Positions 5,776 to 30,211 of a DNA stretch of 30,211 bases are shown here, piece by piece. The stretch is from IMG/VR virus record IMGVR_UViG_2693429554_000017; one strand, given 5' to 3'. How positions within the stretch are numbered: position 1 is the stretch's first letter; the number at the start of each line of letters is the position of its first letter. The translations under genes and the position numbers were made by a program. This DNA is from a virus. Its lineage: Duplodnaviria; Heunggongvirae; Uroviricota; Caudoviricetes. Under the pieces are notes generated by a model, which was not told the origin of the DNA, ran no database searches, and saw only the letters and a list, made by a program, of their open reading frames with translations.

Positions 5776-6033
5776 GTAAAAACACAACGTAATTTGATAT
5801 GGCATTGAATGGCTTATGCGGAGCAGTTATGGGGCAGCAGAAGGTCAATAGCATGCTGAATTAGAAGGCTAAATGCTATTGAGTGACTAGCATGTCGGTA
5901 AGGACAGCCGTTTGATCCGGGTCATAAAAGGCCATCCATTTAGTCTAATAAAATCATTGCGGGTAACCTTATGTCGACGCATAATTCGTCTTGAGCGAAG
6001 TCTTGTCAGTCTTTCATCGTATTGATGATGGGC

Positions 6034-6066
6034 GCAAAAAAACCACCCTGGCAGGTGGTTTTTTTG
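6034..6066. terminator. bidirectional rho-independent terminator
   Basis: AAAAAAACCACC-CTGGCA-GGTGGTTTTTTT: 12-bp stem, 6-nt loop, with A-run on one side and T-run on the other. Lies between the end of A (+) and the 37-aa ORF (-). Confidence 0.75.
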
Positions 6067-6077
6067 TTTGAAGCATA

Positions 6078-6191
6078 TTAAAGCATAATGCTGACATTGA
6101 TATTACTGACGTTTACTGACAAACCACTCGGACTACCGTTTGGATAGCCAAAGAGGGCCAGAACGAGAATGCAGTAATAGCATTTCTTCAT
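6078..6191 (-). CDS. 37-aa hydrophobic small protein of unknown function
   Basis: ATG at 6191-6189 preceded by AGGAGG with 5-nt spacing. Product MKKCYYCILVLALFGYPNGSPSGLSVNVSNINVSIML; stop at 6078, followed directly by the bidirectional terminator. It is the C-terminal part of the 97-aa track ORF 6078..6371, whose upstream part has no SD. Confidence 0.3.
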   Translation of the reverse strand: MKKCYYCILVLALFGYPNGSPSGLSVNVSNINVSIML

Positions 6192-6667
6192 ATTGCCTCC
6201 TGTAAGTAGAGGGCAACTTCCACCGGTATATGCGCTTCTTAGGTGGAATGACTTTTGAGCGAAGTCTTGCCCTGAAATAATGCTCTGTTTAAACGCAAAG
6301 TGATCTGGCATATCACCGAACAGAGAGCCTGAACAACACAACATATAGTATGTCGTTGTTTCTGGTTGCATTTTATGTTGTGTAATACTGGTTTTGCATC
6401 AAGGATGTTTGAGCTTTTTTTGATATAGCTCAAAGTAAAAAGCAGAGACTACGGATGATAAGGTCTTGAAAGCAATGTAAATTTTTTAAAGTTGCCAATT
6501 GCTTAAAAATGTACAGTTGCGGTATGGCGTACTTAAAAAGCTATGCATGCAACAAGTGAATGTTTTTGCATGCGTTGGGGATGTCCGTTCAGGCTGCGTG
6601 CGGTCAGGACTGGTGCGGATCCATAGTATCTATGCAACTGCATTAAAACCGACCCATGAAGCGGGCG

Positions 6668-6686
6668 GGCGAGGCGGGGAAAGCAC
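6668..6686. other. cos cohesive-end sequence
   Basis: GGCGAGGCGGGGAAAGCAC matches the 19-nt P2 cohesive end as I recall it. Lies in a GC-rich non-coding stretch just before Q, where P2 cos is. Confidence 0.6.
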
Positions 6687-6829
6687 TGCGCGCTGGCGGT
6701 GGTGCTGATTTTATTTTTTCAGCGTCTGAGCGCGTCGTGATAGCGTTTAGATTGTGCGCCGGGGCGTTGGTTTGCCTGCGGGCTGTTTTGTGCGGTGGTG
6801 AGCGTGTGAGGGCGTGATGACGGGGGTGT

Positions 6830-6851
6830 AAAAAAGCCGCCCGCAGGCGGC
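6830..6851 (-). terminator. rho-independent terminator after Q
   Basis: On the minus strand GCCGCC-TGCG-GGCGGC followed by TTTTTT, immediately after the Q stop codon. Confidence 0.6.
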
Positions 6852-6856
6852 GATGT

Positions 6857-20446: not shown

Positions 20447-20875
20447 TTATTGTGGCTGAACAGGCCATTCGATATCAGGTGCAGTTGAAATGCCGAGAGC
20501 TTCCAGCGCATCGAGATAATCCAGCCACAGGTTATACTGCGCCAGCTCATCCCCCTTCAGTCTGCCAATAGCCGCTTTGCCCGGCCACTGCCTGCTGCTC
20601 ATGTAATCGTTGGCCTGGCTAATCAACGCCTGTTTTTTAACGTCAGCTGCTGCAATGAGTTCTTCGCGTGTAGGTGGGGGCATATCCACCCATACTGGCA
20701 TTCCATCGTCTGCTCCCAGAGCTTTTCCAGGTGGTGGTGACCCTGTAAATGTACTGACTATATCATCGCTGATATCAATCATATCAGACATGTCCCATCC
20801 CGCCGATTCATAAGACGACAGCCAGGATTTCGGGAAAAAGTTCACAGTCGTTGCAGACCATTTATATCCGTTCAT
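20447..20875 (-). CDS. alternative tail fibre assembly chaperone (inverted copy)
   Basis: 142-aa minus-strand ORF convergent with G; shares the C-terminal SSRQWPGKAAIGRL...YNLWLDYLDALEA motif with G, N-terminus diverged. Confidence 0.8.
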   Translation of the reverse strand: MNGYKWSATTVNFFPKSWLSSYESAGWDMSDMIDISDDIVSTFTGSPPPGKALGADDGMPVWVDMPPPTREELIAAADVKKQALISQANDYMSSRQWPGKAAIGRLKGDELAQYNLWLDYLDALEALGISTAPDIEWPVQPQ

Positions 20876-21307: not shown

Positions 21308-21901
21308 ATGCTTATTGGCTATGTCCGCGTATCAACAAATGACCAGAATACGGAATTGCAGCGTAACGCGCTGGAGTGTGCAGGATGTGAGCTGATTTTT
21401 GAGGACAAAATCAGCGGCACGAAGTCCGACTGGCCGGGACTGAAAAAACTGCTCAGGACATTATCGGAGGGGGATACACTGGTAGTCTGGAAGCTGGACC
21501 GGCTGGGGCGTAGTATGCGGCATCTGGTCATTCTGGTTGAGGAGCTGCGCGAACGCGGCATTAATTTTCGCAGCCTGACGGATGCCATTGATACCAGCAC
21601 GCCAATGGGGCGTTTTTTCTTTCATGTGATGGGTGCCCTGGCTGAAATGGAACGAGAACTCATTGTCGAGCGGACTCGCGCCGGACTGGAAGCGGCCAGA
21701 GCTAAAGGTCGTATTGGTGGCAGACGTCCGAAGCTCACCGCGAGTGAGTGGGAACAGGCAGGACGGTTGCTGGCTGCGGGTGAATCACGTCAACGCGTGG
21801 TGCTGATTTTTGATATTGGCCTGTCCACGCTCTATAAAAAATTCCCCTCATCAGCGGCAAAGAATAAATTGTGTCATCCCTTAGCCAACCGGGACAAATA
21901 G
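21308..21901 (+). CDS. serine recombinase, DNA invertase (Gin/Hin/Cin/Pin family)
   Basis: 197 aa. N-terminal resolvase/invertase catalytic domain (MLIGYVRVSTNDQNTELQRNAL with the active-site Ser in YVRVST; LVVWKLDRLGRS) and a C-terminal HTH. Adjacent to the right inverted repeat. Confidence 0.9.
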   Translation: MLIGYVRVSTNDQNTELQRNALECAGCELIFEDKISGTKSDWPGLKKLLRTLSEGDTLVVWKLDRLGRSMRHLVILVEELRERGINFRSLTDAIDTSTPMGRFFFHVMGALAEMERELIVERTRAGLEAARAKGRIGGRRPKLTASEWEQAGRLLAAGESRQRVVLIFDIGLSTLYKKFPSSAAKNKLCHPLANRDK

Positions 21902-26620: not shown

Positions 26621-27100
26621 ATGATGCTCGCGTTAGGTATGTTTGTTTTTATGCGCCAGACGTTGCCACACCAGACCATGCAGCGTGAATCTGATTATCG
26701 CTGGCCGTCAAATTCCCGTATCGGTAAACGGGATGCCTATCAGTTTCTCGGCGTTGGCGAGGAAAACATCACGCTTGCCGGTATGCTTTATCCCGAACTG
26801 ACCGGCGGAAAGCTGACGATGACCACGCTCAGGATGATGGCAGATGAAGGCCGGGCGTGGCCGTTGCTGGATGGCACCGGCATGATTTACGGCATGTATG
26901 TCATCAGCAAGGTGAGTGAAACAGGGAGTATTTTCTTTGCAGACGGCACACCCCGGAAAATTGATTTTACGCTGTCGCTCACCCGCGTTGATGAATCACT
27001 GGCCGCGCTTTATGGCGATATCGGTAAACAGGCGGAATCGCTCATCGGTAAGGCTGGCAGTATGGCGACCAGATTCACGGGTATGACGGGGGCGGGATAA
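26621..27100 (+). CDS. U: tail protein U
   Basis: 159-aa ORF (MMLALGMFVF...); same length and position as P2 gpU. Confidence 0.85.
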   Translation: MMLALGMFVFMRQTLPHQTMQRESDYRWPSNSRIGKRDAYQFLGVGEENITLAGMLYPELTGGKLTMTTLRMMADEGRAWPLLDGTGMIYGMYVISKVSETGSIFFADGTPRKIDFTLSLTRVDESLAALYGDIGKQAESLIGKAGSMATRFTGMTGAG

Positions 27101-28263
27101 TGCTGGATGCGCTGACATTTGATGCAGGTAGTACGCTGACGCCGGATTACATGCTGATGCTCGACAGCAGGGATATTACCGGCAATATCAGTGACCGTCT
27201 GATGAGCATGACCCTGACGGATAACCGGGGCTTTGAGGCTGACCAGCTTGATATTGAACTGAACGATGCCGACGGGCAGGTCGGGCTGCCGGTTCGTGGC
27301 GCTGTCCTGACGGTGTATATCGGCTGGAAAGGTTTTGCCCTGGTATGCAAAGGGAAATTCACCGTTGATGAGGTTGAACACCGGGGCGCGCCGGATGTGG
27401 TCACCATCCGCGCCCGGAGTGCAGATTTCCGCGGGACGCTCAATTCCCGCCGTGAAGGCTCCTGGCATGACACCACGCTCGGTGCGATTGTTGAGGCGAT
27501 AGCCTCCCGTAACAGGCTGGAAGCCAGTGTCGCTCCGTCACTGGCCGGAATTAAAATCCCGCACATCGACCAGTCGCAGGAGTCTGATGCGAAATTCCTG
27601 ACCCGTCTTGCAGAACGCAACGGCGGTGAGGTGTCGGTAAAAATGGGAAAATTGTTGTTTCTCAAAGCGGGGCAGGGGGTGACGGCCAGCGGTAAAAAAA
27701 TCCCGCAGATTACCATCACCCGCAGCGACGGCGACCGTCATCATTTTGCGATTGCTGACCGTGGAGCCTACACCGGCGTAACGGCAAAGTGGTTACACAC
27801 CAAAGACCCGAAGCCGCAAAAGCAGAAGGTAAAACTGAAACGCAAAAAGAAAGAGAAACACCTGCGCGCACTGGAGCACCCGAAAGCGAAACCGGTCAGG
27901 CAGAAGAAAGCGCCAAAAGTACCGGAAGCGCGCGAAGGTGAATACATGGCCGGTGAGGCTGACAACGTTTTTGCCCTGACCACGGTATATGCCACGAAAG
28001 CACAGGCCATGCGTGCTGCTCAGGCGAAGTGGGACAAACTGCAACGGGGCGTTGCGGAGTTCTCCATCATCCTGGCTACCGGTCGTGCAGATATTTACAC
28101 GGAAACACCGGTCAGAGTGTCAGGCTTTAAGCGCGTCATAGACGAGCAGGACTGGACAATCACTAAGGTGACACATTTTCTGAATAATAGCGGCTTCACG
28201 ACGTCCTTGGAGCTTGAGGTCAGGCTTTCTGATGTGGAGTACGAAACAGAAGATTATGAGTGA
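27100..28263 (+). CDS. D: tail protein D
   Basis: 387-aa ORF, same length as P2 gpD as I recall; start overlaps the U stop. Confidence 0.85.
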   Translation: MLDALTFDAGSTLTPDYMLMLDSRDITGNISDRLMSMTLTDNRGFEADQLDIELNDADGQVGLPVRGAVLTVYIGWKGFALVCKGKFTVDEVEHRGAPDVVTIRARSADFRGTLNSRREGSWHDTTLGAIVEAIASRNRLEASVAPSLAGIKIPHIDQSQESDAKFLTRLAERNGGEVSVKMGKLLFLKAGQGVTASGKKIPQITITRSDGDRHHFAIADRGAYTGVTAKWLHTKDPKPQKQKVKLKRKKKEKHLRALEHPKAKPVRQKKAPKVPEAREGEYMAGEADNVFALTTVYATKAQAMRAAQAKWDKLQRGVAEFSIILATGRADIYTETPVRVSGFKRVIDEQDWTITKVTHFLNNSGFTTSLELEVRLSDVEYETEDYE

Positions 28264-28344
28264 TGTCTTTTGTTTATCTGTTTGTTTTATAAAGATAAAT
28301 TAACTAAAATGGCACTATCAACAAAACCGGAAGAGGTGCTCGCG

Positions 28345-28563
28345 ATGTTTCATTGTCCTTTATGCCAGCATGCCGCACATGCGCGTACAAGTCGCTATAT
28401 CACTGACACGACAAAAGAGCGTTATCACCAGTGCCAGAACGTGAATTGCAGCGCCACGTTCATCACGTATGAGTCGGTACAGAGATACATCGTGAAGCCG
28501 GGAGAAGTCCACGCCGTAAGGCCGCACCCGTTGCCGTCAGGGCAGCAAATTATGTGGATGTAA
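28345..28563 (+). CDS. ogr: late-gene transcriptional activator Ogr (zinc finger)
   Basis: ORF 28270..28563; preferred ATG 28345 (MFHCPLCQHAAHARTSRYITDTTKERYHQCQNVNCSATF...) with AAGAGG upstream; 72 aa with CxxC...CxxxxC zinc-binding pattern. Confidence 0.85.
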   Translation: MFHCPLCQHAAHARTSRYITDTTKERYHQCQNVNCSATFITYESVQRYIVKPGEVHAVRPHPLPSGQQIMWM

Positions 28564-28573
28564 TTACAGGCAG

Positions 28574-28606
28574 AAAGCCCCTCAGTCGAGGGGCTTTATC
28601 TTATTT
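28574..28606 (+). terminator. rho-independent terminator after ogr
   Basis: AAAGCCCCTC-AGTC-GAGGGGCTTT hairpin followed by a T-rich tract; also lies just 3' of the convergent minus-strand gene 28614..29021. Confidence 0.7.
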
Positions 28607-28613
28607 GAGCTAT

Positions 28614-29021
28614 TTACTTACCTGTGTAGGTATGAGTTTTGGATAACACTACTGTTTGTGCAGGTTTTTCCATTAACGGAGCGATTTCATTGCATGTGGC
28701 TAATGGGTCTTCAAAGGTATATCCAATAGACTTATATTGGTTAACTATATTGATTTCACTTACATTTTTTAAAAATGAAGAAGGAGCGTCATGTGTCCAA
28801 AGTGGGGTGCATACACCGGACATAATTAAATGATTATAGGCTTCAGATGTGATTTTTTTACCAGGGAGAACAACGGTAAGAGAGCTATCTTTTATTGTGA
28901 TTTCCAGTGGTTGCCATGGTTTCAGTTGTTTTTGAAGAGTTTTAATGTCATTCGTGTTTGCGTATGCATTGAGTGAAATTATTAAGGTGGTTATTGCCAT
29001 TATTGATTTAAGAGTTGCCAT
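28614..29021 (-). CDS. secreted/periplasmic protein of unknown function (moron)
   Basis: 135-aa minus-strand ORF with AAGGA about 8 nt upstream. N-terminal signal peptide ending AYA (MATLKSIMAITTLIISLNAYA|NTND...), two Cys in the mature part. Markedly AT-rich compared with flanking phage genes. Confidence 0.6.
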   Translation of the reverse strand: MATLKSIMAITTLIISLNAYANTNDIKTLQKQLKPWQPLEITIKDSSLTVVLPGKKITSEAYNHLIMSGVCTPLWTHDAPSSFLKNVSEINIVNQYKSIGYTFEDPLATCNEIAPLMEKPAQTVVLSKTHTYTGK

Positions 29022-29065
29022 AGAAAATCCTTAATAAACATTTGGTTGAGTAAATGTTATACATC

Positions 29066-29106
29066 TAAAAAAAGAAAAAAATAAAGCCCCATATGCTTGG
29101 GGCTTT
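29066..29106 (-). terminator. rho-independent terminator (minus strand)
   Basis: On the minus strand AAAGCCCCAAGCATATGGGGCTTT hairpin followed by a long T-rich run (plus-strand A-run 29066-29082). Confidence 0.5.
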
Positions 29107-29115
29107 CGGTAATCG

Positions 29116-29135
29116 ATGTGGACGCTATGTGGACA
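29116..29135. repeat. tandem direct repeat ATGTGGAC x2, candidate integrase arm-type site
   Basis: ATGTGGAC-GCT-ATGTGGACA, two 8-bp direct repeats 3 bp apart, in non-coding DNA between the moron and fieF. Confidence 0.35.
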
Positions 29136-29200
29136 GCGTTTGATATAAATCCATTTATATCATCAGGTTAGGTGCTTTTTTGTGACACCATCCCTGTCTT

Positions 29201-29228
29201 CCCCCACATGATGTGGGGGTTTTTTTTA
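29201..29228 (+). terminator. rho-independent terminator upstream of fieF
   Basis: CCCCCAC-ATGA-TGTGGGGG hairpin followed by TTTTTTTT; origin (host or phage side of the junction) is ambiguous. Confidence 0.6.
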
Positions 29229-29308
29229 TCCTCAATTTGCCTGCTGCTTAATGCATTGCAGATGATTTGCTTCCGTTATACTACCGTCAGTTGATAGCGG
29301 GAGTATTT

Positions 29309-30211
29309 ATGAATCAATCTTATGGACGGCTGGTCAGTCGGGCGGCGATTGCTGCGACGGCGATGGCTTCGCTGCTATTGCTGATTAAAATTTTTGCATG
29401 GTGGTATACCGGGTCGGTGAGTATTCTCGCCGCGCTGGTGGATTCGCTGGTGGATATCGGCGCGTCGTTGACGAATTTACTGGTGGTGCGATATTCCCTG
29501 CAACCTGCCGACGATAATCACTCGTTTGGTCACGGTAAAGCTGAGTCCCTCGCGGCGCTGGCGCAAAGTATGTTTATCTCCGGTTCGGCACTATTCCTGT
29601 TTTTGACGGGTATTCAACATCTGGTATCTCCAACACCGATGACAGATCCAGGCGTCGGGGTTATCGTGACAATTGTGGCGCTAATTTGTACGATTATCCT
29701 TGTCTCGTTTCAGCGTTGGGTGGTGCGCCGGACGCAAAGCCAGGCGGTGCGGGCTGATATGCTACATTACCAGTCTGATGTTATGATGAACGGCGCAATT
29801 CTGCTGGCGCTGGGGTTGTCCTGGTACGGCTGGCATCGCGCCGATGCTCTGTTTGCATTGGGGATCGGCATCTATATTTTATATAGCGCGTTACGCATGG
29901 GATATGAGGCGGTACAGTCATTACTGGATCGCGCATTGCCTGATGAGGAACGGCAAGAAATTATTGATATCGTGACTTCCTGGCCGGGTGTTAGCGGCGC
30001 TCACGATCTTCGCACGCGGCAGTCAGGGCCGACCCGCTTTATTCAGATTCATTTGGAAATGGAAGACTCTCTGCCTTTGGTTCAGGCACATATGGTGGCG
30101 GATCAGGTAGAGCAGGCTATTTTACGGCGTTTTCCGGGATCGGATGTGATTATCCATCAGGACCCCTGTTCCGTCGTACCCAGGGAGGGTAAACGGTCTA
30201 TGCTTTCATAA
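29309..30211 (+). CDS. fieF: cation diffusion facilitator, ferrous-iron/zinc efflux pump FieF (YiiP)
   Basis: ORF 29267..30211; preferred ATG 29309 ([36 protein letters not shown]...), 300 aa; six predicted transmembrane helices plus a cytoplasmic C-terminal domain. Host chromosomal gene. Confidence 0.9.

Follow-up and report, generated by a model that had tools for sequence, protein, structure and literature searches.

The stretch of DNA analysed here, which we call the window (30,211 nucleotides), is a P2-like prophage that extends from an integrase gene at 1-1011 on the minus strand as far as the right attachment (att) site, beyond which lies the host gene fieF. An open reading frame, here termed the cargo ORF, is found at the right end, together with the following features:

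27100-28263: tail gene D, convergent with the cargo ORF
28346-28563: ogr, between gene D and the cargo ORF
28574-28597, plus strand: ogr terminator hairpin, AAAGCCCC-TCAG-..GGGGCTTT and a T-rich tail, found by a terminator scan
28614-29021, minus strand: cargo coding sequence, encoding a 135-aa precursor, stop included, taken from the list of open reading frames
28959-29021, minus strand: signal peptide, residues 1-21, MATLKSIMAITTLIISLNAYA, assigned from hydropathy and motif
29028-29032, minus strand: Shine-Dalgarno sequence AAGGA, 6 nt 5' of the ATG, read from the sequence
29056-29061, minus strand: putative -10 hexamer TATAAC, placed by its alignment column
29083-29106, minus strand: upstream hairpin, AAAGCCCC..GGGGCTTT and T7, called as a minus-strand terminator by the terminator scan
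29116-29123 and 29127-29134, plus strand: two direct copies of ATGTGGAC in the phage arm of attR
29184-29230, plus strand: att core of 47 bp, identical in phage attP and host attB

The cargo ORF begins with an ATG, and the Shine-Dalgarno sequence in front of it is kept as (A/G)AGGA in all eight homologous loci aligned. Its GC content is 35.5% against 55.1% for gene D, with corresponding third-position values (GC3) of 28.7% and 62.4%, and the 400-nt bin with the lowest GC of the whole window (28801-29200) covers it. A preliminary description of this DNA had placed an extra AT-rich minus-strand gene with its own Shine-Dalgarno sequence between ogr and the attachment region, and the reading frame, the AAGGA and the low GC content all bear this out. 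The predicted product matches the PHROG 3807 profile over its full length (residues 1-135 against profile positions 1-135 of 135, E = 2.1e-60). The cargo ORF is a genuine, selectively maintained gene belonging to a family under purifying selection, and it very probably encodes a real exported cargo protein. A non-functional frame, whether arisen by chance or left as a decaying remnant, would suit the fact that 'hypothetical protein' is the sole annotation found anywhere, but this reading is scarcely credible and close to refuted by pairwise dN/dS values of 0.08-0.22 against homologues in other prophages with synonymous sites near or at saturation, by full-length homologues across genera, by a confident fold prediction, and by a probability of about 5e-5, by our arithmetic, that 135 codons stay open by chance at 35.5% GC.

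Both hairpins that flank the gene are G+C-rich with a T run after the stem. The hairpin at 28574-28597 scored on the plus strand only, its minus-strand tail TTTCTGCC being weaker; it is the terminator of ogr and the left edge of the cassette, and the convergent cargo ORF shares it as a weaker minus-strand terminator. The hairpin at 29083-29106 is conserved in the homologous loci aligned and is the right edge of the cassette. As this second hairpin lies upstream of the promoter region of the ORF, it insulates the cargo gene rather than terminating it, and the ogr-side hairpin alone is able to terminate the cargo gene. The earlier view of a gene bracketed by terminators on both sides thus holds on the ogr side but has to be revised upstream, where the structure is an insulator. 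Its insulating role is deduced from phages P37 and FSL SP-004, where the genes are arranged int-attP-ORF: in the circular phage the upstream terminator would block read-through from the int/C side into the cargo gene.

Between this hairpin and the ribosome-binding site lies an AT-rich leader of 60 nt, in which a -10-like hexamer beginning with TAT (TATAAC, TATAAA, TATGAA or TATGTT) is found at one and the same column of the alignment for seven out of eight upstream regions. There is no good -35 element, its position being taken by the T-run of the upstream hairpin, and a consensus promoter scan called no sigma-70 promoter upstream of the cargo ATG. With no convincing sigma-70 promoter, expression of the cargo gene in the lysogen is an assumption. 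We envisage that the gene would be transcribed alone, its promoter being weak, AT-rich and shielded by the terminator upstream, and that such independent transcription would allow the cargo protein to be made in the lysogen. Two candidate regulatory elements upstream of the ORF, both judged by eye, were rejected: a dyad of the Ogr late-promoter type (TGT-N13-ACA) falls on the arm repeats of the integrase, and the spacing of GTAAA does not fit a CpxR box. A scan of 28200-29400 against Rfam gave zero matches above the gathering score. The best match was to Hrs1 (Hfq-regulated sRNA 1) at 29161-29227 on the minus strand (31.8 bits where 56.4 are required, E = 6e-4). This is the strand opposite that of the cpxP terminator, and the match may reflect the hairpin together with an A/T run.

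The limits of the att core follow from two sets of matches, since every one of the 5426 complete E. coli genomes matches the window from position 29184 to its right end and free phages with the same attP match it up to 29230. In a non-lysogen the core starts 24 nt 3' of the cpxP stop codon, and the terminator hairpin of the cpxP 3'UTR (29201-29219) lies inside it; the prophage is integrated in the cpxP 3'UTR beside fieF. The core region is the origin of the CpxQ small RNA and, because the phage copy of the core is identical to that of the host, integration should leave the 3' end of cpxP intact. The two ATGTGGAC copies in the adjoining phage arm, 11 bp apart, are invariant in all six phages and prophages aligned, and the int-proximal arm of attP has this pair of motifs as well; judged by sequence and placement, they are probably arm-type binding sites of the integrase. 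The preliminary description had allowed that the ORF might prove to be a host housekeeping gene normally found next to fieF. This is not so: in the non-lysogen cpxP directly abuts fieF, and the cargo ORF is present in just 44 of the 5426 complete E. coli genomes. A record labelled as a Salmonella Newport plasmid (NZ_CP051374.1) carries fieF, pfkA, sbp and cdh adjoining a P2-like prophage with a homologue; the record looks like a chromosomal fragment, and it shows the same integration site in use in Salmonella.

A P2-type attR at the cpxP-fieF junction is found in 789 of the complete E. coli genomes, or about one in seven. The cargo ORF is present in 44 of these 789 lysogens and absent from the other 745. 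Wherever E. coli genomes were inspected it lies between ogrK and fieF, and in three sampled lysogens lacking it ogrK is followed directly by fieF. The phages L-413C and fiAA91-ss and the P2-like prophage of strain T22 share ogr, arm, core, int and attP with the window, yet in these the arm adjoins the ogr terminator directly, with no cassette in between. By comparison, the window, phage P37 and FSL SP-004 hold some 530 extra bases at the ogr-arm junction. The cargo locus is therefore an accessory ('moron') cassette, self-contained and about 530 bp long, and close P2-like relatives exist that lack a gene at this site. In strain 377323_2f the locus is 100% identical to that of the window. Its carriers among E. 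coli include human, poultry, pig and dog isolates.

Two alleles of the cargo gene occur in E. coli, one about 98-100% and the other about 79% identical in nucleotide sequence to that in the window. Alignment with the prophage of E. coli E3, which carries the second allele, shows 94-100% identity through D and ogr, a fall to 64-74% from 28599, immediately after the ogr terminator, and a recovery over the signal peptide and leader (28599-29000 of the window compared). The OgrK proteins of the two prophages share one accession, whereas their cargo proteins are only 70% identical. By this comparison the cassette, and mainly the part encoding the mature protein, is exchanged independently of the phage backbone. 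With a dS of 0.88 and a dN/dS of 0.22, the divergence between the two alleles is old, and not a burst of positive selection.

Homologues of the cargo gene occur in P2-like phages of Klebsiella, Serratia, Salmonella, Yersinia and Burkholderia. Of the IMG/VR viral contigs, 36 have a homologue, in every case within about 400 bp of gene D and convergent to it, in the order D-ogr-ORF or D-ORF-ogr. The homologues adjacent to D/ogr range from 25 to 98% identity over several genera of P2-like phages: Salmonella FSL SP-004 gp27 has 70% amino acid identity, those of Kosakonia and Pantoea prophages 44-51%, Klebsiella ST147-VIM1phi7.1 gp35 44%, that of Serratia KSP20 35% and Burkholderia KS14 gp9 25%. A scan of the genome collection with an alignment of close relatives yielded matches in four species only. 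Yersinia phage P37 QIW90038, FSL SP-004 gp27, ST147-VIM1phi7.1 gp35, the KSP20 homologue and KS14 gp9 all belong to the same family, PHROG 3807; these phage members share the D/ogr neighbourhood, the orientation convergent to the late operon, an equal length and the export features, but are annotated without function, so that membership yields no mechanism. Differences within the family are those of arrangement and composition. The Klebsiella type has the homologue between D and ogr, whereas in the window it follows ogr, and KS14 gp9 is annotated as longer and is not AT-rich. The order D-homologue-ogr, convergent to D, is seen in ST147-VIM1phi7.1 (locus L034, 3189-5109) and also in loci L058 and L073.

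This distribution has consequences for the origin of the gene. Its low GC content had been taken to indicate separate horizontal acquisition. Yet all seven other enterobacterial and metagenomic homologues checked have a GC content of 40-43% against 50-56% for gene D, so that low GC is no sign of recent arrival, and the presence of homologues beside D/ogr in several genera marks it as an old, patchily kept accessory gene of P2-like phages. Separate acquisition is accordingly too simple an account: an extra AT-rich gene exchanged as a cassette stands, but recent arrival does not, given an old family of genes residing beside D/ogr.

Export of the cargo protein is indicated by its N-terminus, which in a heuristic test has the parts of a signal peptide: a lysine (K5), an 11-residue hydrophobic core with a mean hydropathy of 2.46, and the motif A-Y-A|N. 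Signal peptidase I is predicted to cut between A21 and N22, a lipobox is absent, and the mature protein would have 114 aa, a mass of 12.7 kDa and a pI of about 8. Among 112 relatives, a hydrophobic N-terminus is present in 108, K/R within the first ten residues in 107, and alanine at position -1 in 88%; signal-peptide features overall are kept in 107-109, and four relatives have a lipobox instead of a plain signal peptide. The only cysteines of the cargo protein are C71 and C110, residues 1-70 having none, and each is kept in 111 of the 112 relatives. Hence the earlier assignment of a signal peptide and two cysteines is well supported, as far as heuristic, sequence-based criteria go.

Modelling agrees with this division of the protein. 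In the full-length structure model residues 4-21 are the sole segment of low confidence, and AlphaFold2 modelled the mature 114 residues from an alignment of 29 sequences with a pLDDT of 92.5 and a pTM of 0.85. The predicted domain is a compact alpha/beta sandwich, comprising in order an N-terminal helix, a beta-hairpin, a pair of helices, a second beta-hairpin, two helices and a final strand. Besides the cysteines, the only polar position kept in more than 90% of relatives is N94, with Y62, T129, T58 and E104 kept at 74-88%; judged from conservation, this set (N94, Y62, T58, T129 and E104, beside Cys, Gly and Pro) is not obviously catalytic. The search for related folds found no solved structural relative, and no similarity to solved periplasmic immunity proteins or lysozyme inhibitors. 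The nearest folds, all weak, were alpha-lytic protease prodomain-like folds, the ring-building motifs of FliF, SpoIIIAH and PrgH, and the pilotin AspS, which are extracytoplasmic protein-protein interaction modules.

Sequence databases were similarly reticent as to function. Pfam and NCBIfam scans gave no match for the cargo protein, the 112 relatives scanned contained no Pfam domain within the cargo family, and the same scans of the protein and its relatives revealed no adhesin, toxin or enzyme signature. None of the defence models of PADLOC-DB 2.0 matched the protein at E <= 1, a sequence search of the PDB returned noise only (S100-A3, E = 0.22), and matches in BFVD were just to the same family, with no assigned function.

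The family nevertheless extends well beyond phages. A profile search of 1.84 billion representatives (E <= 0.001) recovered 210 cluster representatives, most of them 120-140 aa long, and its more remote members (25-33% identity) occur as lone genes, carried by plasmids and further kinds of mobile element. Those on Pseudomonas megaplasmids, including pQBR103, lie near ParB, KfrA and integrase genes; members on plasmid-like contigs adjoin RelB-ParE, Mrr, MmeI and Fic genes; and others adjoin a DNA methylase, a TubZ-like gene or transposases. One member resides on a Halomonas plasmid of 5.8 kb and others on Enterobacter plasmids, the Enterobacter mori copy being beside UbiD/UbiX. Eleven distant contexts revealed no partner gene conserved across lineages. 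The cargo family resides on P2-like phages and on plasmids or integrative elements of Gamma- and Betaproteobacteria. Within the Pseudomonas group of megaplasmids and integrative elements, a 110-aa protein with no signal peptide always follows the family gene (L008, 6548-6880; L010, 6600-6929; L022, 7550-7885); it is absent from all other contexts.

Some relatives are fused to other domains (P0143, P0053, P0159, P0058 and P0103), the partners being VasI/TagO, bPH with a membrane segment, pentapeptide repeats and SH3_3. In such fusions (P0159, P0041) the family domain is found at the opposite end of the protein from a domain of cytoplasmic type or an N-terminal region that spans the membrane, in keeping with export; P0159, for example, has the order bPH_3, hydrophobic stretch, family domain. 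In one relative the partner is VasI (PF11319), a type VI secretion accessory domain, although the function of VasI/TagO is itself unassigned in the literature.

How might such a protein serve the element that carries it? In the reading that we tentatively prefer, the cargo protein provides envelope-level protection (exclusion) of the carrier cell. It would be exported via Sec to the periplasm and cleaved after A21, whereupon DsbA would form a disulfide between C71 and C110. The periplasmic protein would then work alone, by binding and not by catalysis, and would hinder a periplasmic step of attack, either DNA injection or penetration of the cell wall, by superinfecting phages or other mobile elements. 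Several considerations suggest such a role. The gene is carried by several types of element with a common interest in keeping rivals out, needs no partner gene and is swapped as alleles, and a P2-like vibriophage has an analogous, though not homologous, periplasmic protein in Glo.

This last comparison merits closer attention. Glo of Vibrio phage K139, a member of the Peduoviridae, is a 137-aa protein with a signal peptide, encoded by a temperate P2-like phage; its annotation and the papers that cite it place it in the periplasm and describe it as 'involved in phage exclusion', and its gene is non-essential and close to attP/int. Homology of the cargo protein to Glo was considered and rejected, as hhalign with the 112-sequence profile gave a probability of 17% over 19 columns that covered the signal peptides only; tblastn of phages at E <= 1 gave no K139 match. 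Moreover, glo is part of the int-cI lysogenic operon, which lies across attP from the cargo site, and Glo has an experimental phenotype, whereas the cargo protein is likened to it by analogy.

Other exclusion systems offer parallels of a looser kind. Sim of P1 and Sp of T4 are exclusion proteins that act in the periplasm, and Llp of T5 and Cor are receptor-masking lipoproteins. In each case a small exported protein of a resident element blocks phage entry at the envelope, and the likeness to the cargo protein is one of proposed action alone. Having no lipobox, the cargo protein is not a lipoprotein of the Cor/Llp type. The genes old, tin and fun(Z) of P2 are non-essential AT-rich cargo, patchy among P2-type prophages, and the gene in the window has the same character. 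Their products differ from the cargo protein in acting in the cytoplasm, and are unrelated to it in sequence; their sites are also different, being the gpA-portal and tail-fibre/FI regions and not the ogr-att interval. Published defence hotspots of P2 are gpA-portal, int-att, int-primase and the region downstream of gpL; recent surveys of P2 cargo hotspots do not list the interval between ogr/D and the right att site. Literature on these hotspots and on lysogen transcriptomes (RNA-seq of a different P2-like prophage) mentions neither the gene nor the site.

Several points weigh against exclusion. The family is tied to it by neither experiment nor homology, the presence of members on plasmids both small and large equally fits any host-beneficial periplasmic function, and the VasI fusion points towards a different envelope process. 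The lack of a PADLOC match, of homology to Glo, of a listed P2 hotspot at this site and of a convincing promoter counts against it as well. Neither homology nor fold singles out any one of the roles named in the preliminary description, which were superinfection exclusion, envelope modification and virulence.

An alternative that we regard as somewhat unlikely is that the cargo protein is an orphan immunity or inhibitor protein against weapons that act in the periplasm, such as type VI effectors, bacteriocins or lysozyme-like hydrolases. By binding and neutralising an incoming toxin it would give the lysogen or plasmid host a competitive edge. Ivy, MliC/PliC, PliG, PliI and the type VI immunity proteins are likewise small, Sec-exported periplasmic binders, often disulfide-bonded, that neutralise an incoming enzyme. 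A small exported product with a conserved cysteine pair, encoded by a stand-alone gene on mobile elements, is in keeping with this alternative, as is the one family member fused to VasI (PF11319). So too are the two divergent alleles in near-identical phages, a pattern common for immunity genes.

A further alternative, which we consider unlikely, involves no conflict between elements. Here the protein would be a host-fitness or virulence conversion factor, periplasmic or released, that alters the physiology of the envelope, tolerance of stress or interaction with the host. Factors of this type are common among the prophage morons found near att sites. The range of human, poultry, pig and dog isolates that carry the gene would be compatible with it, as would family members on environmental plasmids with metabolic cargo, of which that of Enterobacter mori beside UbiD/UbiX is an example. 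Yet the occurrence of the family in soil and plant Pseudomonas, Halomonas, Burkholderia and enteric bacteria argues against a role specific to animal hosts, and the scans described above yielded no adhesin, toxin or enzyme signature.

The constancy of position, beside tail gene D and the late activator ogr in all 36 contigs of divergent P2-like phages, invites the thought that the protein helps in the lytic cycle after induction, either by tuning lysis or by masking receptors or debris so that progeny are saved. This we hold to be very unlikely. The gene is always convergent to the late operon with a terminator in between, it is dispensable, being missing from 745 of the 789 lysogens and from the plaque-forming L-413C, and it has relatives on plasmids, which have no lytic cycle. 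What probability remains belongs to an explanation not yet imagined.

Returning to protection at the envelope, a bolder form of the idea would treat the fixed place beside the tail-hub gene D as a functional link. In this version, which we think improbable, the cargo protein would be the phage-borne member of a widespread mobile-element family, furnishing a general, single-gene periplasmic barrier against machines that penetrate the envelope, be they contractile phage tails or tailocins or type VI spikes, or against rival elements whose DNA is entering the cell.

Few prophages are commoner in enteric bacteria than the P2-like ones, and their cargo is a proven source of phage defence. The cassette described here lies outside the catalogued cargo hotspots of P2 and encodes a protein that is exported rather than cytoplasmic. 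Prophage morons for exported proteins are already known as a kind, and the family was known as an unnamed PHROG; new are the fixed D/ogr position across the Peduoviridae, the spread to plasmids, the cassette swap and a fold with no structural relative. If the exclusion reading is true, a single-gene periplasmic protection factor could add a new envelope-level mechanism. If the protein is instead a fitness factor, the locus is still a clean case of an accessory gene that is old and swapped as a cassette within a densely packed phage genome.

Two further regions of the prophage bear on its accessory content. The gpA-portal interval, where P2-like phages have their chief hotspot for defence genes (old/tin in P2), is almost empty in the window (5776-6856), holding a lone ORF of 97 aa (6078-6371, minus strand), which had no PHROG match, and a dip to 41% GC. 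In addition, the window contains a DNA invertase gene (21308-21901; PHROG 125, E = 6.5e-98), adjoined by an inverted tail-fibre assembly gene (20447-20875, minus strand; PHROG 188) that lies 3' of the plus-strand fibre and assembly genes. The segment 20447-21901 looks like an invertible host-range switch in the place of P2 fun(Z).
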